A stretch of 64,000 nt of DNA from an uncultured Candidatus Saccharibacteria bacterium (lineage in GTDB: Bacteria > Patescibacteriota > Doudnabacteria > UBA920), in assembly GCA_964504715.1 (NCBI GenBank), contig CAZDEP010000002.1, positions 21,434-85,433 on the forward strand, given 5' to 3'. This document shows positions 2,798-54,876 of the stretch, one piece after another. How positions within the stretch are numbered: the stretch's first letter is position 1; each line of letters opens with the position of its first letter. A model generated the notes under the pieces. It had not been told where the DNA came from and made no database searches. It saw only the letters and a program-made list of their open reading frames with translations. The position numbers and the translations under genes were made by a program.

Positions 2798-3748
2798 CTA
2801 CTTTGATAAGGCAAATAATTTTTTAGCATTCTCTGTGGTAATTTTTTCAACTTCCTCCAGTGATAGATTTTTAATTTTTGCCACTCTTTCCGCCACGTGC
2901 TTTACGTAAAGCGGTTCGTTGCGTTTGCCTCGGTGCGGGACGGGAGTCAAATACGGCGAATCGGTTTCTAGAACAATCCTGTCAATGGGAACAGTTTTAA
3001 CCACTTCTTCCATATTTCCGCTTTTATCGAATGTAATTATACCATTTAAACCCACATACGCGCCGCGCTTTATAAATTCCTGAACGATCCCCGGACTACC
3101 GGTAAAGGAATGGATTTCAAACCGCAACCCCTCCCCTTCCCTCCCCTCATAAGGGGAGGGAGTAAGGGAGAGGTGGGCTTCTTGATCTAAAATTTGAAGT
3201 ATATCCTCGTACGCGTCCTGTGAACCCGCGCTCGGCCGGCAATGAATTACCAAAGCTTTATTTGCCTCTTTCGCCAATCTGATTTGCTGGACAAACGCAT
3301 CTTTTTGCAGCTTTTTAATTTCCTGATGACGGTCTTCTTGCCCCGCAAGAAGACCGTCATCTTGCGGCAGGCGGTAGTAGTCAAGCCCGCATTCGCCAAT
3401 GCCTACTACTTTTGGACTGTCCGCAAGTTTCCGATACGCCTCAAAGTCAAATTTTTCTTCACGTGATAAAAAACTTGTCTCTTCTTCATCCAAATGCTGC
3501 GAATAAGTATGGACCGGATGCAGCCCTATTACCGCATAAACGCCACCCCTTCCTCTCTCCTCCCCCCTAGAGGGGGAGGAAGGGTAGGGGGGATATTTTT
3601 CAGCAAGATCAACGGCCTGGCGTGATGTATCGATCTGTGTACCCACGTTTACAACCCACACGCCCGCTTCCAAAGCCCGGCCAATGGTTTGGTCGACGTC
3701 TTCGGCAAAAGCCTTAAAATTCACATGGGCGTGAGTGTCTATAAGCAT
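2798..3748 (-). CDS. TatD-family metal-dependent hydrolase/DNase
   Basis: MLIDTHAHVNF... N-terminus and TatD-like length; contains two in-frame palindromic repeat insertions (PYPSSPSRGEERGRGG; LTPSPYEGREGEG) and an in-frame terminator-like hairpin (DDGLLAGQEDRH). Confidence 0.8.
   Translation of the reverse strand: MLIDTHAHVNFKAFAEDVDQTIGRALEAGVWVVNVGTQIDTSRQAVDLAEKYPPYPSSPSRGEERGRGGVYAVIGLHPVHTYSQHLDEEETSFLSREEKFDFEAYRKLADSPKVVGIGECGLDYYRLPQDDGLLAGQEDRHQEIKKLQKDAFVQQIRLAKEANKALVIHCRPSAGSQDAYEDILQILDQEAHLSLTPSPYEGREGEGLRFEIHSFTGSPGIVQEFIKRGAYVGLNGIITFDKSGNMEEVVKTVPIDRIVLETDSPYLTPVPHRGKRNEPLYVKHVAERVAKIKNLSLEEVEKITTENAKKLFALSK
3125..3176. repeat. Family-1 GC-rich palindromic element (copy A), in-frame in the tatD-like CDS
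   Basis: ctccccttccctcccctcataaggggagggagtaagggagagg. Confidence 0.8.
3326..3360. repeat. Family-3 terminator-type hairpin repeat located inside the tatD-like CDS (in-frame)
   Basis: atgacggtcttcttg-ccccg-caagaagaccgtcat has the same 15-bp arms as the 24452..24488 terminator; it encodes DDGLLAGQEDRH on the minus strand. Confidence 0.75.
3543..3593. repeat. Family-1-like palindromic element (copy B), in-frame in the tatD-like CDS
   Basis: cccttcctctctcctcccccctagagggggaggaagggtagggggg. Confidence 0.7.
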
Positions 3749-7773: not shown

Positions 7774-7785
7774 GATTAAATAAAA

Positions 7786-7986
7786 TTAAGAAGTCATTTT
7801 AAAAATAATTTTAAGGCGAAATTGGGGAATTTTAGGCCAGTCGGTCAAAACAAATTTTGAATGTTTAACTGGAAGTTAAGCGGAGAAATTTTTTTGGCCG
7901 AATGGACAAAATTCACGAATTGTCCCCCTACGGGGGATCTGCCGTAGGCACGACAGCCAAAAAGGATTTTTAAAATGACTTCTTAA
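7786..7986. repeat. 201-bp element bounded by perfect 21-bp terminal inverted repeats (MITE-like or structured RNA candidate)
   Basis: ttaagaagtcattttaaaaat (7786..7806) is the exact reverse complement of atttttaaaatgacttcttaa (7966..7986). The interior holds further palindromic segments (ccccctacggggg / ctgccgtaggcac). It lies in the nfo/M16-peptidase intergenic region. Confidence 0.5.
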
Positions 7987-8043
7987 TAAGATTGACGATA
8001 ATTTATAATTCTTGCCACTCTCGATCATTCGCGGCAAGCTCGC

Positions 8044-10491: not shown

Positions 10492-10493
10492 TT

Positions 10494-10545
10494 TCTTCTC
10501 TCCCTCCCCTTCTGAGGGGAGGGATTAAGGGAGAGGTTGCGATTA
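10494..10545. repeat. Family-1 palindromic element (copy C), intergenic
   Basis: ttctctccctccccttctgaggggagggattaagggagaggttgcg fills the 51-bp gap between the M24 peptidase start and the DUF559 gene stop. Confidence 0.8.
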
Positions 10546-10926
10546 AACTAAACATGTTTGCTTAATTTTTTCCAATACTCCTTCAATATTTTTATCAACA
10601 TCAATATTCTGGAATCTTAAAACTTTATAACCGGACTTTTCAGCGTATTCCTGTTTTACTTTATCGTGAATTAAGTTAACCGGTTCGCTGTGCTGCCCCC
10701 CGTCTAATTCAATTAATAACATTTTACTTCGGCAACTAAAATCAAAAACATACGAGCCAATTTGGACTTGGCGCTTAAATGGCAACCCGTAAAATCTATT
10801 TGCTCTTAAATATTGCCACAATTTTATTTCCCAAGGATTTTTATTCTTTCTCAAATCTCTGGAATAAGTTAGGTAAGGCTCAGGGATAATGCGGTTCATA
10901 TGCAACCTCTCTGGCCTAAAGGCCAT
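10543..10926 (-). CDS. DUF559-type endonuclease-like domain protein (Vsr/restriction-endonuclease-like fold)
   Basis: WQYLRANRFYGLPFKRQVQIGSYVFDFSCRSKMLLIELDGGQHSE...YKVLRF is typical of DUF559; the likely true start is MNRII at ~10899. Confidence 0.6.
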   Translation of the reverse strand: MAFRPERLHMNRIIPEPYLTYSRDLRKNKNPWEIKLWQYLRANRFYGLPFKRQVQIGSYVFDFSCRSKMLLIELDGGQHSEPVNLIHDKVKQEYAEKSGYKVLRFQNIDVDKNIEGVLEKIKQTCLV

Positions 10927-11000
10927 CTCTCCTCAAAAGGAGAGAGAAAAGCTCTCTCCCTTCGACAAGCTCAGGGTACTCCTCCTATTCTAGGAGGAGA

Positions 11001-17164: not shown

Positions 17165-18157
17165 TCACTCTGGGGCTAAAGCCGCCAAATACTCTATAAA
17201 ATTTTCAAAAACATTATACTCGGTGTATTGTTCAAAACTTTTTAGCCCCGGAAAACGGTTGACCTCCAAAATATAAAACTTGCCGTTTTTTTCCAATATG
17301 TCGACTTTGGCCAGTTCCCTGCCCAATGTGCGAGATGCTTTTTCGGCGAGTTTAATAAGCTTTCCATACTTGTCATTGCGAGCCCTGAATGCATCTGAAG
17401 GGCGTGGTAATCTATTCTCATAGATTGCCTCCACCTTCGCTGAAGCTTCGGCGGACAGGTCGGATGCACTCGCAATGACAGAAAAAGAATCAAAATCCAC
17501 CCTTCCGAATTTCTTATTAAATCTAAATCTTAAAATTACCGGCAATGCCTTATACCCGACCGTAATAATTTTATATTCATAATCCGCCTCTATATATTCC
17601 TGCCACATCCATTCGTTTAAAGGATGCCGGCCAATGATATTTTGGAATTTGAAATTTGAAATTTGGGAATTTATGTGAAAAGTGCCTCTGGCCTTTAGTC
17701 CATATACCCACTTTAATATAAAAGTGCTTAGTGCTTCCGCCTTCGCCAAAGCTTTAGCGGACAAGAAGCGCTTGGTGCCAAGTTTAGAACCATAATTCAT
17801 AATTCTTGATTCATACTTCCAAGTTTTAGGGATAAGGAGGCCGGTTTTTTTTAGATTTTTATAGTCTTCCCATTTACCTTTGCCTAAATTGCCTTGGGTT
17901 ATATTTTCATCTACCACCCTGCCGCCCTGGGCTTGAAAGCTTTGGGCAAGCTTTATAATTTTTTCCAAATAATCCGCTTTATCCTTTAAATAGGGATTCC
18001 GAATATATAAAACATCGCCCCCAAGCGTCGTAAGCTGAAAATTGCAGGCGGCAAGATCGGCAATGTCCATAATTCTTAATTCATAATTCTTAATTCTCGC
18101 TTCCAAAGCGAGCCTGTTTGCCGCGTAAGCGCTTTTTGGGGAGATAAGGTAAATCAT
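17165..18157 (-). CDS. ATP-grasp family ligase (RimK/glutathione-synthetase-like)
   Basis: ATP-grasp-like C-terminal half (…YILEVNRFPGLKSFEQ); contains two in-frame family-2 repeats (ARIKNYELRIMD; YESRIMNYGS). Confidence 0.6.
   Translation of the reverse strand: MIYLISPKSAYAANRLALEARIKNYELRIMDIADLAACNFQLTTLGGDVLYIRNPYLKDKADYLEKIIKLAQSFQAQGGRVVDENITQGNLGKGKWEDYKNLKKTGLLIPKTWKYESRIMNYGSKLGTKRFLSAKALAKAEALSTFILKWVYGLKARGTFHINSQISNFKFQNIIGRHPLNEWMWQEYIEADYEYKIITVGYKALPVILRFRFNKKFGRVDFDSFSVIASASDLSAEASAKVEAIYENRLPRPSDAFRARNDKYGKLIKLAEKASRTLGRELAKVDILEKNGKFYILEVNRFPGLKSFEQYTEYNVFENFIEYLAALAPE
17791..17820. repeat. Family-2 repeat, in-frame in the ATP-grasp gene
   Basis: cataattcataattcttgattcatacttcc; encodes WKYESRIMNYG. 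Confidence 0.6.
18068..18097. repeat. Family-2 repeat, in-frame in the ATP-grasp gene (tandem 14-mer)
   Basis: cataattcttaattcataattcttaattc; shares an identical 19-mer (aattatgaattaagaatta, on the reverse complement) with the metG copy; encodes RIKNYELRIMD. Confidence 0.7.
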
Positions 18158-18187
18158 ACCTATAATACTAGCTTATTTTTGCACAAA

Positions 18188-18251
18188 ATTCGAACGTCGC
18201 ACAATGCACAACCTAAAAAACTCAAATGCCCATTGTCGCCATATATTTTGT
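18188..18251. repeat. 'Solo' inverted-repeat pair of the cacaatgcacaa / tttgtgtatttgtg family (empty MITE-like site)
   Basis: cgcacaatgcacaacc (18188..18203) and ttttgtgtatttgtgg (18236..18251) are inverted relative to each other. The same 13-mer tttgtgtatttgt recurs at 41690..41702 flanking the GxxExxY gene. Confidence 0.4.
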
Positions 18252-18370
18252 GTATTTGTGGATAACCTCTCGTGTCGCATAATGTTGTATTGTGTTAAAA
18301 TAGAATTGCCGCATAAAGCTGAACATAATTTCTTGCAGCATTTAAATGGCGGAAATGTTATCCTAAAACC

Positions 18371-19408
18371 ATGGAAACTACCCCCTCCCCTACAAAGCCT
18401 AATATGAGCGGATTGCGCAAAGCCATTATGGACTTTTTGGAATACTGTGAAATCGGCAAAAACCAGAGCCGCAATACCATTGCGGCTTATTACCGCTACC
18501 TGGATAAATTTGAGCGCTTTGCCCAAGGCATTAAATTAAAAGATGCCAAAGACATTACCTTAGATGTAATTAACCGCTACCGGCTTTATTTAAACCGCCT
18601 GGAAGACGAAGACGGCCGGACACTTAAACTAATTACCCAAAACTACCATTTAATAGCCCTCAGGGCATTCTTAAAATACCTGACCAAGCAGGATGTTAAA
18701 ACCTTGTCCCCGGAAAAAATCGAATTGCCCAAAAACCCCCAACGGCAGGTGGAATTTTTGGAAAACGATGAACTGCAAAGGTTATTCGACGCCACCAACC
18801 AGGAAACGGACGAAACTTCCCGCTTAAGGGATTATGCGATTTTGCAGACTTTGTTTTCCACCGGCCTCCGCGTTTCCGAACTGGCTTCCCTCAAAAAGGA
18901 CAATATAAACCTCGAACGCCACGAATTTACCGTACGCGGCAAAGGCAGCAAGTTAAGGCTGGTGTTTTTAAGCGATACCGCGGCAGAAGCCATAAAAAAA
19001 TACCTGGCTAAACGCCGGGACAATAACAAGGCTTTGTTTATCGCCCATTCCAAAATCGGAGAATCAGTGGAAAAACAAATGGAAAGCCAACAGGCAACCT
19101 CTCCCCTTCCCTCCCCTCATAAGGGGAGGGTGGCCGAAGGCCGGGAGAGGTTGAGATTTTTTGGCCTGACTCCCCGCTCTATCCAACGGATTATTAAAAA
19201 ATATTGCCTGATTGCGGGGATCGTAAAAAAAGTGACCCCGCACACCCTCCGGCATTCCTTTGCGACGGACTTGCTGCAAAATGGCGCGGATATAAGGAGC
19301 GTGCAAACCCTTTTAGGCCACTCCTCCATAACCACAACCCAAATTTATACCCACATAACAAACCAGGGACTAAGGGACATTCATAAGAAATACCACAATA
19401 AGAAGTAA
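18371..19408 (+). CDS. Tyrosine site-specific recombinase (XerC/XerD-like)
   Basis: C-terminal HTLRHSFATDLLQNGADIRSVQTLLGHSSITTTQIYTHI (R..H..R..Y catalytic box); interrupted in-frame by palindromic element E (ATSPLPSPHKGRVAEGRERLRFF). Confidence 0.8.
   Translation: METTPSPTKPNMSGLRKAIMDFLEYCEIGKNQSRNTIAAYYRYLDKFERFAQGIKLKDAKDITLDVINRYRLYLNRLEDEDGRTLKLITQNYHLIALRAFLKYLTKQDVKTLSPEKIELPKNPQRQVEFLENDELQRLFDATNQETDETSRLRDYAILQTLFSTGLRVSELASLKKDNINLERHEFTVRGKGSKLRLVFLSDTAAEAIKKYLAKRRDNNKALFIAHSKIGESVEKQMESQQATSPLPSPHKGRVAEGRERLRFFGLTPRSIQRIIKKYCLIAGIVKKVTPHTLRHSFATDLLQNGADIRSVQTLLGHSSITTTQIYTHITNQGLRDIHKKYHNKK
19095..19153. repeat. Family-1 nested palindromic element (copy E), in-frame in the xerC-like CDS
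   Basis: caacctctccccttccctcccctcataaggggagggtggccgaaggccgggagaggttg. Confidence 0.85.
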
Positions 19409-19536
19409 GAGGTATGAAGCAAGAATTAAGGTTAAGACAAATCAAAAAGCCTACGTACATCTACGTAGGCTTTTTCAATTTCTGCGCCTCATGTTTTTCC
19501 CTTAATTCTTAATACTTAATTCTTACTTCTTGCTTC
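19399..19536. repeat. Inverted pair of family-2-related A/G-rich repeats flanking the 19444..19476 terminator
   Basis: aagaagtaagaggtatgaagcaagaattaagg (19399..19436) vs ccttaattcttaatacttaattcttacttcttgcttca (19499..19536). Confidence 0.55.
19444..19476. terminator. Bidirectional rho-independent terminator between convergent genes
   Basis: aaaaagcctacgta-catc-tacgtaggcttttt perfect hairpin with A/T runs on both sides; flanked by inverted family-2 repeats (19399..19436 and 19499..19536). Confidence 0.6.
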
Positions 19537-40578: not shown

Positions 40579-41268
40579 AAGATACTTGCAATCGGCGCCC
40601 ATCCGGACGACATTGAATTCGGAGTCGGCGGGCTAATTATTAAAGAAGCCGAAAAAGGTTCGGAGATTTTGTATGCCATAGGCTCGCTGGGCGAAGCCGG
40701 AACTTCGGGCACGCCCGAAGAACGCCGGCAGGAAGCCGAAGATGCCGCCAAGATAGTCGGGGCAAAAGTGGAATTTTTGGATTTGGGAGGCGACTGCCAC
40801 ATGACCGACTCCCCTGCCAATGCCATAAAGATTGCCGAAGTCATCCGCCGCTTTAAGCCGGAAGTTGTCCTCGCGCCTTCCCAAACAGAAAACCAGCACC
40901 CGGACCACAAAGTTATTTCCGACCTGGCCCGCGTCGCCTGCCGCCTGGCCAGATACGGCGGCTTAACGGAAGTAAAGCATTTGCCTGTGCATAAAATTAA
41001 CGGCCTCTACTTCTACCCTTCCGGCGCGGAATGGGACAAGCGTCCGGACATAATAATAGACATGAGCGGCGTTTACGAAAAGTGGGAGCAGGCCATGTCC
41101 GCCCACAAAAGCCAAATGAAAACCCGGGAGTACTTAAACCTAGTGGGCAGCAAGGCCGCGGCTTTGGGCGCCTCGGTGGGCGTAAAATACGCCATTGGCC
41201 TCTGGACCAACGACCCCATACGCTTAAATAATTTGTCAGATATCACACTGTCTTCCAGAAACTATTAA
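40576..41268 (+). CDS. PIG-L/LmbE-family N-acetylglucosaminyl deacetylase (BshB-like)
   Basis: MKILAIGAHPDDIEFGVGG...HPDH metal-binding motifs. Confidence 0.75.
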   Translation: MKILAIGAHPDDIEFGVGGLIIKEAEKGSEILYAIGSLGEAGTSGTPEERRQEAEDAAKIVGAKVEFLDLGGDCHMTDSPANAIKIAEVIRRFKPEVVLAPSQTENQHPDHKVISDLARVACRLARYGGLTEVKHLPVHKINGLYFYPSGAEWDKRPDIIIDMSGVYEKWEQAMSAHKSQMKTREYLNLVGSKAAALGASVGVKYAIGLWTNDPIRLNNLSDITLSSRNY

Positions 41269-41306
41269 GATCACAAATGCACAAATAAAAAAAATCACAC
41301 AAATCT

Positions 41307-41675
41307 ATGGGAGAAAATACCGGCGATCATACCAAAGAAATTATCGGGGCTATATTCCGTGTTTATAATATACTGGGATATGGGTACAGGGAGAAGGAAT
41401 ACCAAAAGGCCCTCGCCGAAGAACTGTCCAAGCTCGGTCTTAGATTCCAAAGAGAACTTTATAGCTATTTAAAGTATGGGGAAAAAATCATTACAAAATT
41501 TTATGTTGATTTCCTGGTTGAAAACTGTGTGGTAGTAGAATTAAAAATCGCTGACGGTATTTACAGAAAACACTTCCAACAGCTGCTCGCCTATTTAAAA
41601 AATCATAATCTTAAAGTTGGTTTATTGGCTGTGTTTACGGCTGATCGTGTAATTATCAAACGCATAGTAAATTAA
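41307..41675 (+). CDS. GxxExxY-family protein (PD-(D/E)xK nuclease-like)
   Basis: GENTGDHTKEIIGAIFRVYNILGYGYREKEYQKALAEEL... matches the GxxExxY pattern; flanked by cacaaatgcacaaata (left, 41270..41306) and tttgtgtatttgt (right, 41676..41711, inverted). Confidence 0.7.
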   Translation: MGENTGDHTKEIIGAIFRVYNILGYGYREKEYQKALAEELSKLGLRFQRELYSYLKYGEKIITKFYVDFLVENCVVVELKIADGIYRKHFQQLLAYLKNHNLKVGLLAVFTADRVIIKRIVN

Positions 41676-41711
41676 TTTGCGCAATTAGTGTAATTTGTGT
41701 ATTTGTAATCT

Positions 41712-50632: not shown

Positions 50633-53314
50633 TTATTCCCGAATTTTTGAAAGGTACAATTTAAAATTATATATCAGCTTCCTAATTTCCTCAGCCAAAA
50701 TAACCACAAAAGCCACGCCTAAAATTGCCGCCCACTCGCCCCAGGTTAAAGGGACGGTTTTTAGTATTTTTTGGAAAAAAGGATGGTAAATTGCCAAAAG
50801 CTGCAGGCCCAAATTAGCCAAAACGGCTAAAATTAAATATGGATTTTTGAAAAATCTGCCGCTAAATATGCTTTCCCTGTCTGACTGGCAATTAAAACCG
50901 TTGTACCACTGCGCAACAGCCAGGGTCGTTAAAGCTATGGTTATGCCTTTAAAATAATCTACACTGTAATACAGGTTAAACAAATACAAAGCCGCTCCGG
51001 CCATGGCCGCGCCCAAAATGGGCATTTGCAATAGCATGGACGGGGTCATAAAATACTTTGGCTGCTTTTGGAAATTACTGTGCAAAAGCCCGGCTTCCTT
51101 TTTCTCCAATGCCAAAGCGGTGCCTATGAGCGGGTCGGTGACTAAATTCAGCCATAATATTTGCGCCGCCAAAACCGGCATGGGCATATGCAAAAAAAGC
51201 GCCGCAGTTATGGCAAACAATTCACCCAAAGAAGTGGAAAACAAAAACAACAGCGATTTTTGGATATTTTTGTACATATGGCGGCCTTCGGCAATGGCCG
51301 CGACAATGCTGCTTAAGTTGTCATCCAAAAGCACAATGTCGGCCGCGTCTTTAGCCACTTCCGTGCCGATTTTACCCATGGCCACACCCAAATCCGCCGC
51401 CGCCAGAGAAGGCGCGTCGTTAACTCCGTCGCCGGTCATAGCCACCACCACGCCCAAATGCTTGTAAGCTTCTATAATTTTCATTTTATCCTGGGGCGTG
51501 ACCCGGGAATACACAGAAATTTTGTTTAAGCGAGCAGCCAGCTGCTCCTTGCTGAGTTCCGCCAATTCGCTCCCGCTTATGGCTTCGTCGCCCGCTTGGT
51601 ATATACCAGCCTCCTCCGCAATGGCTTTGGCCGTCACTTTATGGTCGCCCGTTATCATGACAATTTTTACCCCGGCTTCTTTGGCAAGCTTTATGGCTTG
51701 TTTAGCTTCCGGCCTTACCGCATCTTCTATGGCAAGCAGCCCGGTTAAAACCAAATCGTCGATATTATCCGTTTTATGGTGCCTGCCCAAAAGCTTAAAG
51801 CCGCATGCTACTACCCTTAAAGCCTGGGAGGAGAATTCCTCCATAACCGCCTCCCACTGTTTTCGGACCTGGGCGGTAAAGGGATGGCGCTCGCCGTTTT
51901 CCAAAAAACTGGCAGCCTTATTCATAAGCACTTCCGGCGCGCCGGAAATGGCGCAAAAAATTTCCTGGCGATGTTCGTAAAAGACCGCCCTAAATTTGGT
52001 ATTATAGCTAAACGCGATTTCGGCAGTTTCTTTGTATTCTTCAAAAAGTTTTTCCCGCGGCTCCCCTAATTTTTCCCCCAAAACCTGCATAGCCGCCTCG
52101 GTCGGGTCACCCGCCACTTTATAAACCCCTTCCTGCTTTAAATACCTGACCGTCGCCCGGCTGGCAAGCGAGGCTATGCGCGCTGAAAGCCCGACGTCTC
52201 CCGAGCCTGGCTGTTTCTGGCCCCCAAGCTCCAAATGTCCATCGGGGCTGTAGCCGCTGCCGGTCAGCGTATAAATCTTGCCGCCTGACAGTATTTTTTT
52301 TACCGCCATTTCATTTTTGGTAATGGTGCCGGTTTTGTCCACGGCAATCACCCGCGCCTGCCCGAGCGCTTCTACGGCCTGCAACTTTTTTACCAGCGCC
52401 TTGCGGCGGCTCATTCTGTATACGCCGGTTACCAAAATTAAAGTCAACACCAAAGGCAGGCCTTCAGGGATCATGGACACGGCCAAAGAAACTACTATCC
52501 CAAACATTTCCCTTGCGGACCTCCCGTATGCCAGTCCCAAAGAAAAAAGCCCGGCCGAAATTACACCAATGGCATAAATAATCAACCGGGAAAGTTTTTT
52601 AATATTCCGCTGCAGGGGAATTTCCGTTTCCCCCACTTCCAATAAATTTTTGGCCGTTTTGCCAATTTCCGTCTCCGCGCCCGTAGCCACCACCGCGCCC
52701 AAACCATTGCCGGTTAAAATATTGGTGCCTTTAAACACCATATTTTTCTGGCCCGCCGGCGGCAGCGAACTTTCGCCAATACTGCTTTCGGATTTGTGGA
52801 CTCCGCCCGACTCCCCCGTTAAAGCGGCTTCGTCGCAGCTTAGGTTGGAAACATGCAGGAGCCTCGCGTCGGCCACCACTTTTTGGCCTTCCTGCAGCAC
52901 CAGAATATCGCCCACGACCGCATCTTTTTCCGGAATTATTTCTTCCTCGCCTCCGCGAATAACCGCAGCCTCGCTCTCCGAAAGTTTTTTAAGGCTCCTT
53001 AAGGTGCTCTGGCTGCGGCCTTCCTGAATAGCCCCGACGACAGCATTAAAAATTAATACGGCCAAAATAATTACGCTGTCGGTATGTTCACCGATAAAAT
53101 AAACTATGGTTGAACATAACAATAAAATATATATTAGGGGGCTTTTAAATTGGTTGGCAAAAATTTTGAACCACGAGTCAGGCGGGCTTTCCGGCAGCAA
53201 ATTCGGACCATACTTTAAAAAGCGGCTCTCGGCCTCTTTGGCGCTTAAGCCGGTTTCCATATTCGTTCCAAGCTCGGTTTCTATTTGGTTTTTGGTATAT
53301 TGGTACCAGTGCAT
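50633..53314 (-). CDS. Cation-transporting P-type ATPase (P2-type, Ca2+/Mg2+-like)
   Basis: VIAVDKTGTITKN (phosphorylation site), TGES, MTGDGVNDAPSLAAADLGVAMG; 893 aa with 10 TM helices. Confidence 0.85.
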   Translation of the reverse strand: MHWYQYTKNQIETELGTNMETGLSAKEAESRFLKYGPNLLPESPPDSWFKIFANQFKSPLIYILLLCSTIVYFIGEHTDSVIILAVLIFNAVVGAIQEGRSQSTLRSLKKLSESEAAVIRGGEEEIIPEKDAVVGDILVLQEGQKVVADARLLHVSNLSCDEAALTGESGGVHKSESSIGESSLPPAGQKNMVFKGTNILTGNGLGAVVATGAETEIGKTAKNLLEVGETEIPLQRNIKKLSRLIIYAIGVISAGLFSLGLAYGRSAREMFGIVVSLAVSMIPEGLPLVLTLILVTGVYRMSRRKALVKKLQAVEALGQARVIAVDKTGTITKNEMAVKKILSGGKIYTLTGSGYSPDGHLELGGQKQPGSGDVGLSARIASLASRATVRYLKQEGVYKVAGDPTEAAMQVLGEKLGEPREKLFEEYKETAEIAFSYNTKFRAVFYEHRQEIFCAISGAPEVLMNKAASFLENGERHPFTAQVRKQWEAVMEEFSSQALRVVACGFKLLGRHHKTDNIDDLVLTGLLAIEDAVRPEAKQAIKLAKEAGVKIVMITGDHKVTAKAIAEEAGIYQAGDEAISGSELAELSKEQLAARLNKISVYSRVTPQDKMKIIEAYKHLGVVVAMTGDGVNDAPSLAAADLGVAMGKIGTEVAKDAADIVLLDDNLSSIVAAIAEGRHMYKNIQKSLLFLFSTSLGELFAITAALFLHMPMPVLAAQILWLNLVTDPLIGTALALEKKEAGLLHSNFQKQPKYFMTPSMLLQMPILGAAMAGAALYLFNLYYSVDYFKGITIALTTLAVAQWYNGFNCQSDRESIFSGRFFKNPYLILAVLANLGLQLLAIYHPFFQKILKTVPLTWGEWAAILGVAFVVILAEEIRKLIYNFKLYLSKIRE

Positions 53315-53840
53315 ACGAAAATTAGCATGCGAAAATTCGAAAATTATGCGAAATCTATCAACTAATTACGCGTTCGTTATTAATTTCATGATTAATGACT
53401 CTGTAGGGCTTCACATACACAGCCTGGAAATTTATTATCATTCCAAGTTTTAATTTAAGCACATGTAAATACCTTTGAGTTTGAAAATAATCTTCTTTTG
53501 TAATGTTAGGTCGGGCTTTAATCTCAAGTAAAATGCAATCATCTATTATAAAATCTATCCTATTACCTGTGCCCTTTATGGTAAACTCGCGGGTAGATTT
53601 AATCTTATTTTCGATTAACTTTTGTTCTAAAGAATCACAATACTGTTTTTCTTTTGCAAAACGCCCCAACTCTTTTTTTACCTGTAAACACAAACCCGTA
53701 ATTTTATAAGAAAGTTCGGGGTAAAGAATATCCTTCCTTAATAGTCTTGGTTTTATTTCCATACTTGGATTATTATGTCTCTAATCCATTTTTATTTCGT
53801 ACTTTCGCATGCTTTTCGTTGTTTCGTATGCAAACTTTCG
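53310..53840. mobile_element. GxxExxY gene cassette bounded by ~50-bp imperfect inverted repeats built from gcat(g/a)cgaaa units
   Basis: Left 53310..53365 reads gtgcatacgaaaattagcatgcgaaaattcgaaaattatgcgaaatc. Right 53783..53840 reads ...actttcgcatgcttttcgttgtttcgtatgcaaactttcgcatgcac, which is the reverse complement of the same units. The repeats abut the P-type ATPase start codon and the AI-2E stop codon. Confidence 0.5.
53358..53762 (-). CDS. GxxExxY-family protein (second copy)
   Basis: ELSYKITGLCLQVKKELGRFAKEKQYCDSLEQKL...LLEIKA. Confidence 0.7.
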   Translation of the reverse strand: MEIKPRLLRKDILYPELSYKITGLCLQVKKELGRFAKEKQYCDSLEQKLIENKIKSTREFTIKGTGNRIDFIIDDCILLEIKARPNITKEDYFQTQRYLHVLKLKLGMIINFQAVYVKPYRVINHEINNERVIS

Positions 53841-53847
53841 CATGCAC

Positions 53848-54876
53848 TTACCTCTCCATATACTCCCTCAAGTCTTCCCGGTAAATATCCACCAAAGTTA
53901 CAAACACTGCCATGACAATGGGCCCGAGTAAAAAGCCAAAGAAGCCGAAAAATTTTATGCCGCCTAAAATGCCAAAAAGAATTAAAAGCGGATGGATTTG
54001 GGTTTGGGAGCCCACCAGCTTTGGGCCGGCAACATTGTCAACCATCCCCACCGCCAGCGCGCCCCAAACTGCCATGCCTACCGCAGCGCCCGTATGCCCC
54101 GTGGCCAGCAGGTACAGCACCGCCGGAATGACTGCCAAAGAAGTGCCCACGGTTGGGACCAAAGCGGCCAAAACCGTAAACGCCCCCCACAGAAGCGGAT
54201 TAGGCACGCCAAAAATCAAATACCCCGCTGTGCCTACCACGCCCTGGATAAGCGCCACCAAAAAAGAACCCTTTACTACGCCGTTGACCGCCGAAGAAAT
54301 TTTCTCCACCAAAAGATTTTCATGCTTTTCGGAAAGCGGCAAAATCGCGCCAATGTATTTTTTTATTTTTTCGCCGTCGCGCAAGAGGTAGTAAAAAGTA
54401 AAAAATACCAAAAAGAACGACAACACAAAACCCGCCACGTTGGAAAGCACGGCGCCCAAACTCTGGAAAGCGCCGCCCGCAACTTGAGAAAATTTGGAAC
54501 CCAAATCGTTTATAAAACTTTGCCCCAATTCCTTAAACTGCGGCGGCAAATGGGCAACTAGCTGGGCGGCTCCTGTCTGTGCAGATGTATCCCTCAGCTG
54601 ATTATATAAACCAACCACTTCGTTAAACAACAATTGGCCCATAAAGTATAAAGGCACCATAACAATAAACAACACTATAAATATGCACGCCAAAGCCGCC
54701 ATGGGCTGACTTTTAAATGCGCGGACAAACCTCTGATAAACCGGCCAAAAAAGCACCGCCATAATAGCCGCGAGTGCCAGCAAGTTTAAAAACGGCCACC
54801 ACATAAGAGCCACCACGGCTCCCACGCAGGCAAACAAAACCAAAAAAGCTATTAACTGCAAACGCTGATGGTTCAT
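53848..54876 (-). CDS. AI-2E family transporter (second paralog)
   Basis: Multi-TM protein, 342 aa; AI-2E-like. Confidence 0.7.
   Translation of the reverse strand: MNHQRLQLIAFLVLFACVGAVVALMWWPFLNLLALAAIMAVLFWPVYQRFVRAFKSQPMAALACIFIVLFIVMVPLYFMGQLLFNEVVGLYNQLRDTSAQTGAAQLVAHLPPQFKELGQSFINDLGSKFSQVAGGAFQSLGAVLSNVAGFVLSFFLVFFTFYYLLRDGEKIKKYIGAILPLSEKHENLLVEKISSAVNGVVKGSFLVALIQGVVGTAGYLIFGVPNPLLWGAFTVLAALVPTVGTSLAVIPAVLYLLATGHTGAAVGMAVWGALAVGMVDNVAGPKLVGSQTQIHPLLILFGILGGIKFFGFFGFLLGPIVMAVFVTLVDIYREDLREYMER

Follow-up and report, generated by a model that had tools for sequence, protein, structure and literature searches.

Mirror-image arrays of short repeat units flank GxxExxY nuclease genes and suggest a single-gene cassette in a Doudnabacteria contig and beyond

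Small nuclease-like genes that interrupt otherwise compact bacterial operons raise the question of how they arrived there and what keeps them in place. Such a case is found on a 64,000-nucleotide (nt) stretch of DNA from an uncultured Candidatus Saccharibacteria bacterium (GTDB lineage Patescibacteriota, Doudnabacteria; GenBank assembly GCA_964504715.1, contig CAZDEP010000002.1, positions 21,434 to 85,433 of the forward strand), hereafter called the window, where a gene of the GxxExxY family (PDDEXK_3), encoding 134 amino acids (aa), lies between a transporter gene and an ATPase gene with inverted repeats on its two sides. An earlier note made from the letters of this DNA had described the gene as a minimal mobile cassette, possibly a homing-like selfish element. 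Here, we ask whether the gene and the repeats form one element and, if so, of what kind. Our preferred answer, to which we assign a probability of roughly 45%, is that the gene and its two repeat arrays are one discrete single-gene cassette acting at the level of DNA, with arms that are arrays of binding sites, most likely for the cassette's own nuclease.

The gene (gene 1; 53358..53762, minus strand) matches PF13366 (PDDEXK_3, E 6.6e-18) and TIGR04256 (GxxExxY, E 1.8e-17) and is preceded by an AI-2E family transporter gene (53848-54876, minus strand, stop codon 53848-53850) and followed by a P-type ATPase gene (50633-53314, minus strand, ATG 53312-53314). The multi-unit inverted repeats attributed to it were recovered as two 46-nt arms, 80% complementary (53308-53353 and 53803-53848), with units that are exclusive to gene 1 in the 64 kb. 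The 5' arm, upstream of the gene (53795..53848, minus strand), contains five CGAAA-core units, seen as TTTCG on the plus strand at 53795, 53803, 53814, 53822 and 53836, rather than the three counted before, and it abuts the AI-2E stop codon. The 3' arm (53308..53353, minus strand) contains four, seen as CGAAA on the plus strand at 53316, 53330, 53338 and 53349, and its outermost unit overlaps the ATPase start codon. Counted from the outer ends inward, the cores follow a mirrored 14-8-11 spacing on either side. Rather than plain inverted repeats, the arms are more aptly called arrays of 8-11-nt units. The exact fit between the neighbouring genes was also seen again, with the right arm ending at 53847/8, at the AI-2E stop codon, the ATPase ATG lying within the last unit of the left arm, and the spacers on both sides of the gene filled entirely by the arms. 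The sequence ATGCAY is native to the ATPase gene, as it is found at two gene-free sites too (L021 and L022; the compared loci are cited by such numbers). The unit motif TTTCGYATGC has five copies in the window, five of five at gene 1, where 0.44 would be expected, and none of 100 shuffles reached five. A general intergenic motif of the genome, such as a common promoter or operator, was rejected, since the units are absent from other intergenic regions of the window. A promoter and terminator scan of cassette 1 gave background level only, and the Rfam search matched only tRNAs and no family for the cassette.

Two minor observations concern translation of the ATPase gene at this junction. The gene-free locus L022 has a GAGGA ribosome-binding site 8 nt upstream of the ATPase gene (2985-3003). 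At occupied AI-2E/ATPase sites the arm abuts the ATPase ATG and the GAGGA-type ribosome-binding site is gone.

The window contains a second family member (gene 2; 41307..41675, plus strand, 122 aa; PF13366 5.6e-29, TIGR04256 7.4e-30), which, as had been noted, lies between a PIG-L/bshB-like gene and bshA and has a different repeat family, here of CACAAAT-type units. Its 5' arm (41268..41304, plus strand) begins at the bshB-like stop codon and its 3' arm (41675..41711, plus strand) ends at the bshA start codon (41712), so that the two 37-nt arms, 76% complementary, span the whole interval from stop to start. An empty pair of this second family had been proposed at 18188-18251, and of this the right half stood: the 13-mer TTTGTGTATTTGT at 18247-18259 is identical to a part of the cassette 2 3' arm (41694-41706), giving two matches where 0.00 are expected. 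The left half did not, as the partner there consists of loose GCACAA units only, and no long inverted repeat was detected near 18.2 kb; the spot (18177..18259, plus strand) is at most a possible decayed gene-less remnant, and a weak one. Save for it, the other intergenic regions of the window have neither CGAAA- nor CACAAAT-type units, and no integrase adjoins either cassette in the window.

To see how far this architecture extends, we considered 80 loci from a metagenome scan made with a second protein alignment, the first having been too diverse, and with protein similarity as the sole criterion. Of these, 58 non-redundant genes had sufficient sequence on either side, and for them the upstream 90 nt were locally aligned to the reverse complement of the downstream 90 nt and z was calculated against shuffles. 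The median inverted-flank score was 34 over the 58 loci, compared with 16 for the same windows aligned directly and 14 for shifted windows, and z exceeded 4 at 44 of them (Mann-Whitney p=1.7e-15). Aligned arms are 23-61 nt long and have a median of three cores, with up to five, spaced 8-11 nt; the arm autocorrelation peaks at lags 8, 10 and 18-19, and several arm pairs are near perfect, for example that of L056 (50/51 positions). The core measures 5-7 bp and its sequence varies by cassette lineage, the types found being CGAAA, CNAAT, CGGAT, CACAAAT, CACAGAGG and CGCGAAG.

The same design is carried by finished isolate genomes, and an assembly artefact was rejected on this ground. In Bernardetia sp. 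a GxxExxY gene with CACAGAG units (score 36) stands between ade and a mannose-1-phosphate guanylyltransferase gene, and in Bacteroides finegoldii one stands between radA and a gene for a flavin adenine dinucleotide (FAD)-dependent protein, with CACAGAGG three times on either side (score 45). Within the fabD-fabG operon of Sphingomonas parapaucimobilis, three CGCGAAG-type units precede the gene (score 41) and the inverted 3' arm is hidden inside the annotated C-terminal tail. The GxxExxY gene of Treponema has a short inverted pair of 11 nt, and in Gemmatirosa a gene-less CGCAGAGGA hairpin lies beside the GxxExxY gene. The inverted-repeat design is a property of the GxxExxY family in several bacterial phyla, beyond the candidate phyla radiation (CPR) and beyond metagenome assemblies. 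As a separate observation, a direct repeat, CAGATTTAATCCGTGTACCTAT (score 59), takes the place of an inverted one on the Fusobacteria plasmid CP102406.1 (L118).

Whether gene and arms move together can be judged from the places where they are and are not found. The nearest named homologues belong to Candidatus Doudnabacteria and relatives. In other genomes, homologues of gene 1 with 76-78% identity occupy the AI-2E/ATPase junction and are flanked by arms of like build (L003-L006, L016); the gene at the same position but bare of repeats, which the earlier note had set down as a case against its view, was not what the relatives L003 and L016 carry, as both have gene and repeats. Other homologues, 71-76% identical, sit at another junction, that of PIN_3 and a UvrD/AddA-like helicase gene (L007-L015, L018), with 4-5 CGAAA units upstream and five inverted units downstream. 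Gene 2 has a homologue of 78% identity at the bshB/bshA junction (L028), where related arms are kept, and homologues of 62-64% identity upstream of thrS, where the arms consist of CACGGAT units (L029-L032). The genes of L081 and L085 are 84% identical in DNA and have unrelated flanks. Conversely, the flanks of L035 (CGAAA units) and of L069/L085 (CGGAT units) share 77-80% DNA identity while the genes are only 66% identical, and the cassettes of all three share both the stop codon and the start codon between which they lie, which is a case of cassette exchange or of repeated insertion at a hot spot.

The empty sites that a mobile cassette would leave among relatives were found at the AI-2E/ATPase and bshB/bshA junctions, and altogether four junctions are known in both the occupied and the gene-free state, a presence/absence polymorphism. 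The AI-2E/ATPase junction is gene-free in L022, with a plain 59-nt spacer, and the bshB/bshA junction in the two closest BshA orthologs (L121 and L122), with overlapping stop and start codons (TAATG, TGATG). Parabacteroides distasonis has a gene-free radA/FAD junction with a 13-nt spacer, and S. paeninsulae a gene-free fabD/fabG junction with a 33-nt spacer in which the ribosome-binding site is kept; the radA junction of Phocaeicola massiliensis holds an unrelated 215-aa gene and is uninformative. Some junctions have arms and no gene. At the AI-2E/ATPase junction of L021 (CAZPRQ010000029.1, 2358-2478), a geneless 120-nt spacer holds one palindrome of CAAAT/ATTTG units with 57-nt arms and a 7-nt loop, of a unit family other than that of cassette 1; L120 has a gene-less hairpin; and the 57-nt bshB/bshA spacer of L123 has a 16/19 match to the cassette 2 3' arm, which 1 of 500 shuffles reached. 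Of the cassettes with co-directional neighbours, 31 lie on the strand of these neighbours and two on the other strand (p=1.3e-7), and the median spacers to the neighbour genes are 47 and 45 nt. Since like cassettes occur at different junctions, different types at one junction, and junctions also occur empty or with gene-less arm pairs, these comparisons show gene and arms travelling together and support the view that they are one movable unit. The earlier suggestion of mobility thus gains support from the empty junctions and from the homologues with like arms at PIN_3/UvrD, the homing-like route being one possible route. Metagenome scanning with the AI-2E protein found no relatives, and phage-database searches with two GxxExxY proteins gave no matches.

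A further peculiarity of the bshB/bshA junction concerns L121 and L122 (2501-2535), where the annotated bshA opens with two copies of AAGATTAAGGATA in its first 30 nt; BshA of the window, of L028 and of L123 (which has the spacer only) starts about nine residues later than in these two. The doublet may be a further short unit repeat of the junction.

The same distribution could also be explained without movement, by an old resident gene with conserved regulatory repeats whose different contexts reflect ancient paralogues and differential loss. Long-lived occupation of the same junction, strong purifying selection on protein and cores and the fact that no recent transposition event was caught would all fit such a history. 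However, the gene interrupts pairs that are tightly coupled or universally adjacent, namely bshB/bshA, with its overlapping stop and start in L121 and L122, and fabD/fabG; it is patchily present among close relatives; one junction can hold different cassette types or gene-less arm pairs; and multiple transfers have been reported for PF13366 (PMC3424549). We therefore consider a purely resident gene very unlikely.

Once in place, the cassettes appear to be maintained by selection, and the pattern of their variation bears on whether the arms act as DNA or as RNA. The cassette protein (75-80% identical) surpassed both of its flanking proteins (57-77%) in conservation in seven of seven ortholog comparisons. 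When the six arms of three species were aligned at each of two junctions, the unit cores alone were conserved and the spacers varied freely; likewise, the orthologous cassettes of L003 and L016 keep the CGAAA cores and vary in the spacers. Judged from these alignments, both the protein and the unit cores are under purifying selection long after insertion.

One alternative is that the arms are selected for pairing in the read-through transcript, where RNase III would cut the stem, release the cassette mRNA and insulate the operon. The cassettes are co-oriented with their operons, the arms span stop codon to start codon, and the cassette 1 transcript does fold with its arms paired (minimum free energy -137 against -102 kcal/mol for shuffles, z=-6.1). 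The mismatches between arms, in contrast, do not have the character expected of RNA stems. Among 255 mismatches in 1,667 aligned positions of 44 loci, transitions compatible with G-U pairing in the sense RNA number 53 and those of the opposite kind, which would give A-C, number 59 (p=0.64), and transversions, which cluster in the core and mostly at its degenerate second position, make up 56% of mismatches (CGAAT/CTAAT/CAAAT). The arms of a locus are no more similar to each other (mean 36.4) than the 5' arm of one ortholog is to the 3' arm of another (39.4), which means that they do not co-evolve, and in an RNAalifold analysis of seven CGAAA-type cassettes the covariation term was +1.85, with paired positions that are mostly invariant cores and variable ones that are mostly broken. 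Moreover, pairing gives no reason for a 5-7-nt core that is repeated three to five times per arm, and no Rfam family matches. An RNA-level element is in our view improbable. A core that recurs in a fixed orientation and tolerates degeneracy at one position looks like a row of protein-binding sites on duplex DNA.

Which protein would bind these sites? Both GxxExxY proteins pass the curated cut-offs of the family models, with 65.6 bits on PF13366 (cut-off 22) and 63.7 bits on TIGR04256 (cut-off 35) for gene 1, and 101.3 and 103.7 bits for gene 2. The signature motif is canonical in gene 2 (G-Y-R-E-K-E-Y) and two residues longer in gene 1 (G-R-F-A-K-E-K-Q-Y). The gene 1 protein has E38, D70, E80-x-K82 and Q94-x3-Y98, and in an alignment of 40 diverse family members E38 and D70 are invariant and (D/E)80-x-K82, Q94 and Y98 nearly so. 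Its AlphaFold2 model (predicted local distance difference test, pLDDT, 85.7; predicted template modelling score, pTM, 0.78) consists of two helices, then three strands, a helix and a further two strands, a predicted topology that we read as a PD-(D/E)xK core. The top Foldseek matches in the Protein Data Bank (PDB) were Cas4 SSO0001 (4ic1, E 2.7e-3), alkaline exonuclease (3syy) and Cas4 Pcal_0546 (4r5q), followed by weaker ones, with E of 0.03-0.5 and thus short of the 0.001 level, to MGME1, tRNA-splicing endonucleases, the I-Bth0305I homing endonuclease domain and Hjc. Searching solved structures by sequence returned marginal matches only, to T7 endonuclease I and Cas4, and PADLOC gave weak, sub-threshold matches to Cas4 hidden Markov models and no defence system. 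Fold and motifs agree in this respect with the PD-(D/E)xK assignment made earlier. The protein shares with Cas4/RecB-family nucleases the fold and the motifs E...D...(D/E)xK...QxxxY, but it differs from Cas4 in having about 60% of the size, template modelling scores (TM-scores) of only 0.44-0.49, no CRISPR context and no invariant cysteine cluster; the family alignment contains no conserved cysteines, and no CRISPR or cas genes lie nearby. It is best described as a minimal nuclease of the RecB/Cas4 branch and not as a member of Cas4.

The family is large and spread across bacterial phyla, with 29,595 clusters (50% identity) at E<=1e-3 and 11,245 at E<=1e-10, and a 2012 survey of PD-(D/E)xK proteins by Steczkiewicz et al. 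(PMC3424549) gave the function of PF13366 as 'Unknown' and reported multiple transfers. Many of the best family matches (P0142, P0143 and others) are either 250-300 aa long with two GxxExxY domains or 400-900 aa long with one, which suggests tandem cassettes and, where no stop codon intervenes, fusions to neighbours. Arms are frequently translated as protein in annotations: the 3' arm in Sphingomonas appears as a C-terminal tail (L115, 1875-1929, WP_347090946.1), and many CPR family proteins begin with 'MHTN...' or 'MHAN...', which is the unit ATGCATACGAAT read as codons. As the arms get translated in this way, the annotated lengths and starts of the family are unreliable.

In the mechanism that we favour, the cassette has no recognisable promoter and sits in the short spacer of two co-directional genes in the same orientation, where it would presumably be transcribed by read-through. 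Each arm consists of a row of three to five units, 8-11 bp apart, in mirror image to the other arm, with cores that stay constant within a lineage while the spacers drift. These units would be the binding sites of a sequence-specific protein, probably the cassette's own Cas4/RecB-like PD-(D/E)xK nuclease, several copies of which would bind each arm in the way that transposases bind multi-site transposon ends. Over evolutionary time, operon junctions would gain the cassette, lose it, swap it for another or keep no more than a gene-less arm pair. Movement would be driven by the nuclease, which would either cut at the arms, with the host repairing the break, or, once DNA has been taken up, have the cassette copied in by a homing-like break repair. 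Because the cores differ between two cassettes of one genome, the units are unlikely to be read by a general host factor, and the linked nuclease is the obvious candidate. We rather doubt, but consider possible, the further-reaching proposal that GxxExxY proteins are the sole protein of an unrecognised class of prokaryotic mobile elements, in which the nuclease recognises the end arrays and moves the cassette into the stop/start spacers of operons with neither a conventional transposase nor target-site duplication.

Several results weigh against the cassette as we have described it, in addition to the paired fold of the cassette 1 transcript given above. The earlier note had proposed a look for target-site duplications, and none were found: the longest direct repeat at the boundaries averages 3.3 nt over 44 loci and 3.1 nt in shuffled pairings, although any duplication of great age may have decayed. 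Nor were near-identical cassettes found at different sites, the best pair having 84% DNA identity, and the unit motif TTTCGYATGC does not occur elsewhere in the window. Cassettes persist at a single junction in hosts that share only about 60-70% identity in the flanking proteins, and such long residence implies that movement is rare or that the cassette is partly domesticated or useful to the host. Three of eight non-CPR examples (L116, L118, L119) have no clear inverted arms; Prevotella, the Fusobacteria plasmid and Persicobacter fit the design poorly. Binding of the units by the nuclease is something we infer from the cassette protein being the sole linked variable. Finally, PD-(D/E)xK nucleases hydrolyse DNA and, to our knowledge, do not carry out strand transfer, which does not account for the insertion step.

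The last point, that a hydrolytic nuclease alone does not account for insertion, favours a different arrangement in which the cassette is a non-autonomous passenger. Its arms would then be the target of an enzyme from another locus, for instance a transposase, or a tyrosine recombinase such as the one at 18371-19408 of the window, and the nuclease gene would be cargo, as in mobile insertion cassettes, miniature inverted-repeat transposable elements (MITEs) and integron cassettes. Gene-less arm pairs exist, the tyrosine recombinase gene of the window is itself flanked by unit-repeat arrays, and the absence of target-site duplication is expected for site-specific recombination. However, the arm units differ between the two cassettes of this genome and across lineages, which leaves no single trans-acting enzyme for all cassettes, and arms of this kind occur at 44 of 58 GxxExxY genes that were chosen by protein similarity alone. 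No transposase was noticed among the neighbour genes of about 24 listed loci (L033-L112 were not screened for one), and unlike integron cassettes, the element has repeats on both sides and no adjacent integrase. We regard a passenger role as unlikely.

Comparison with known mobile DNA places our candidate, a nuclease-bearing cassette, close to several systems. Mu, Tn7, IS21 and the plant elements Ac and En/Spm are transposons with terminal inverted repeats whose ends are multi-site or carry subterminal repeats. They share with the cassette mirror-image ends, several similarly spaced copies of a motif, which in the transposons is bound by their own protein, and gene-less derivatives. The cassette, in contrast, has no DDE, tyrosine, serine or HUH transposase, and its sole gene encodes a PD-(D/E)xK nuclease of about 125 aa; it shows no target-site duplication, has no dispersed copies in the window and is found only in stop/start spacers and in operon orientation. 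Of the features that define an insertion sequence, terminal inverted repeats are present, and a transposase and a target-site duplication are not. As regards MITEs and mobile insertion cassettes, no other unit copies and no cognate insertion sequence were seen, within the 64 kb of the window.

Free-standing homing endonuclease genes, such as the T4 seg and mob genes and the gene of the PD-(D/E)xK enzyme I-Ssp6803I, likewise comprise a small nuclease gene between conserved genes, patchily present at a fixed site with no target-site duplication, and different genes can occupy the same spacer. The cassette may accordingly be pictured as such a gene, whose product cuts the empty junction and which is copied in by repair, with the arms serving as operator arrays for autoregulation or insulation. 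PD-(D/E)xK homing endonucleases do exist, I-Ssp6803I being one, and the fold matches include the catalytic domain of I-Bth0305I. In addition, divergent hosts carry a cassette at the same junction, with a cassette protein more similar than the flanking proteins, and one junction can hold different cassettes. What sets the cassette apart is that its flanking arrays are conserved under selection and that closely related cassettes lie at unrelated junctions: very similar cassettes at AI-2E/ATPase and PIN_3/UvrD would need a change of target specificity at 69-74% protein identity. Gene-less arm pairs, moreover, are not expected from homing, and we know of no free-standing homing endonuclease genes with flanking repeat arrays, let alone mirror-image ones. 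The chance that homing of this kind is the whole explanation appears small to us.

Other systems resemble the cassette in part. Ralph and McClelland are said to have described, in 1993, intervening sequences of 23S rRNA that carry an open reading frame (ORF) for an S23p or four-helix-bundle protein (PF05635); like the cassette, they occur sporadically, measure about 0.5 kb, encode a single protein of about 125 aa and have inverted repeats at the ends. They differ in lying inside rRNA, where the repeats form an RNA stem cut by RNase III, whereas the cassette lies in mRNA operons and has unit-built arms, no covariation or G-U signature and another protein fold. Integron gene cassettes also have a promoterless single gene that points in the direction of transcription, as well as an imperfect inverted repeat, and they can be exchanged at one site. 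Their attC, however, is confined to one side, where the adjacent IntI integrase recognises it in the form of folded single-stranded DNA, while the GxxExxY cassette has arrays on both sides, no integrase or attI, and scattered junctions. Repetitive extragenic palindromes (REPs) and the REP-associated tyrosine transposases (RAYTs) offer the parallel of a single-copy, vertically stable gene flanked by cognate inverted repeats, with a repeat that varies with the gene lineage. RAYTs, however, are Y1 (HUH) transposases and REPs are dispersed in hundreds of copies, in contrast to the nuclease fold and the lack of dispersal of the GxxExxY cassette in the window; a REP/RAYT-like dispersed repeat was rejected, as no other unit copies occur there. 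The cassette falls outside insertion sequences and transposons, integron cassettes, REP/RAYT systems and rRNA intervening sequences.

In the literature searched, we found no description of flanking repeats or mobility for GxxExxY, PDDEXK_3 or PF13366, and we could not find the family-wide repeat-bounded architecture described before. For PF13366/TIGR04256, a large family with no assigned function, a fixed and lineage-specific repeat architecture offers a testable role: if the arms are the nuclease's own binding sites, one would expect the protein to bind, and probably to cut, units of 5-7 bp that the flanks of each gene spell out. The cassettes also offer natural pairs of a small nuclease and its putative cognate site. 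If the cassette is autonomous, a nuclease-only element would join the known kinds of bacterial mobile DNA, and this would explain GxxExxY genes inside operons as conserved as fabD-fabG or bshB-bshA. The architecture also accounts for annotation artefacts, with arms appearing as N- or C-terminal tails and neighbour genes as fusions, and the cassettes can be used as a marker for gene flow in CPR bacteria.

The window contains further elements with repeats at their sides. A DUF559 gene (10543-10926, minus strand, 127 aa), coding for a Vsr-like PD-(D/E)xK protein (PF04480, E 5e-32) whose PHROGs matches are to HNH and homing endonuclease families, is likewise wedged between co-directional genes. 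Its flanks (region 10492-11000) carry purine/pyrimidine hairpins, ctccctcccc..ggggaggg and ctctcctc..ggagagag, and not unit arrays. The tyrosine recombinase gene mentioned above (18371-19408; Phage_integrase, E 4e-43) is flanked by TTAAGAAT-type unit arrays (region 18067-19531), including a pair of 31 nt with 81% complementarity (18067-18097 and 19401-19431), and is followed by a hairpin with 40-nt arms (19400-19439 and 19492-19531); these repeats could be a third repeat family or belong to a recombinase-bearing cassette. Finally, a 270-nt intergenic region is largely taken up by an inverted repeat of 28 nt (7785-7987), 93% complementary, with a loop of 147 nt and the ends ATTAAGAAGT, which looks like a MITE.

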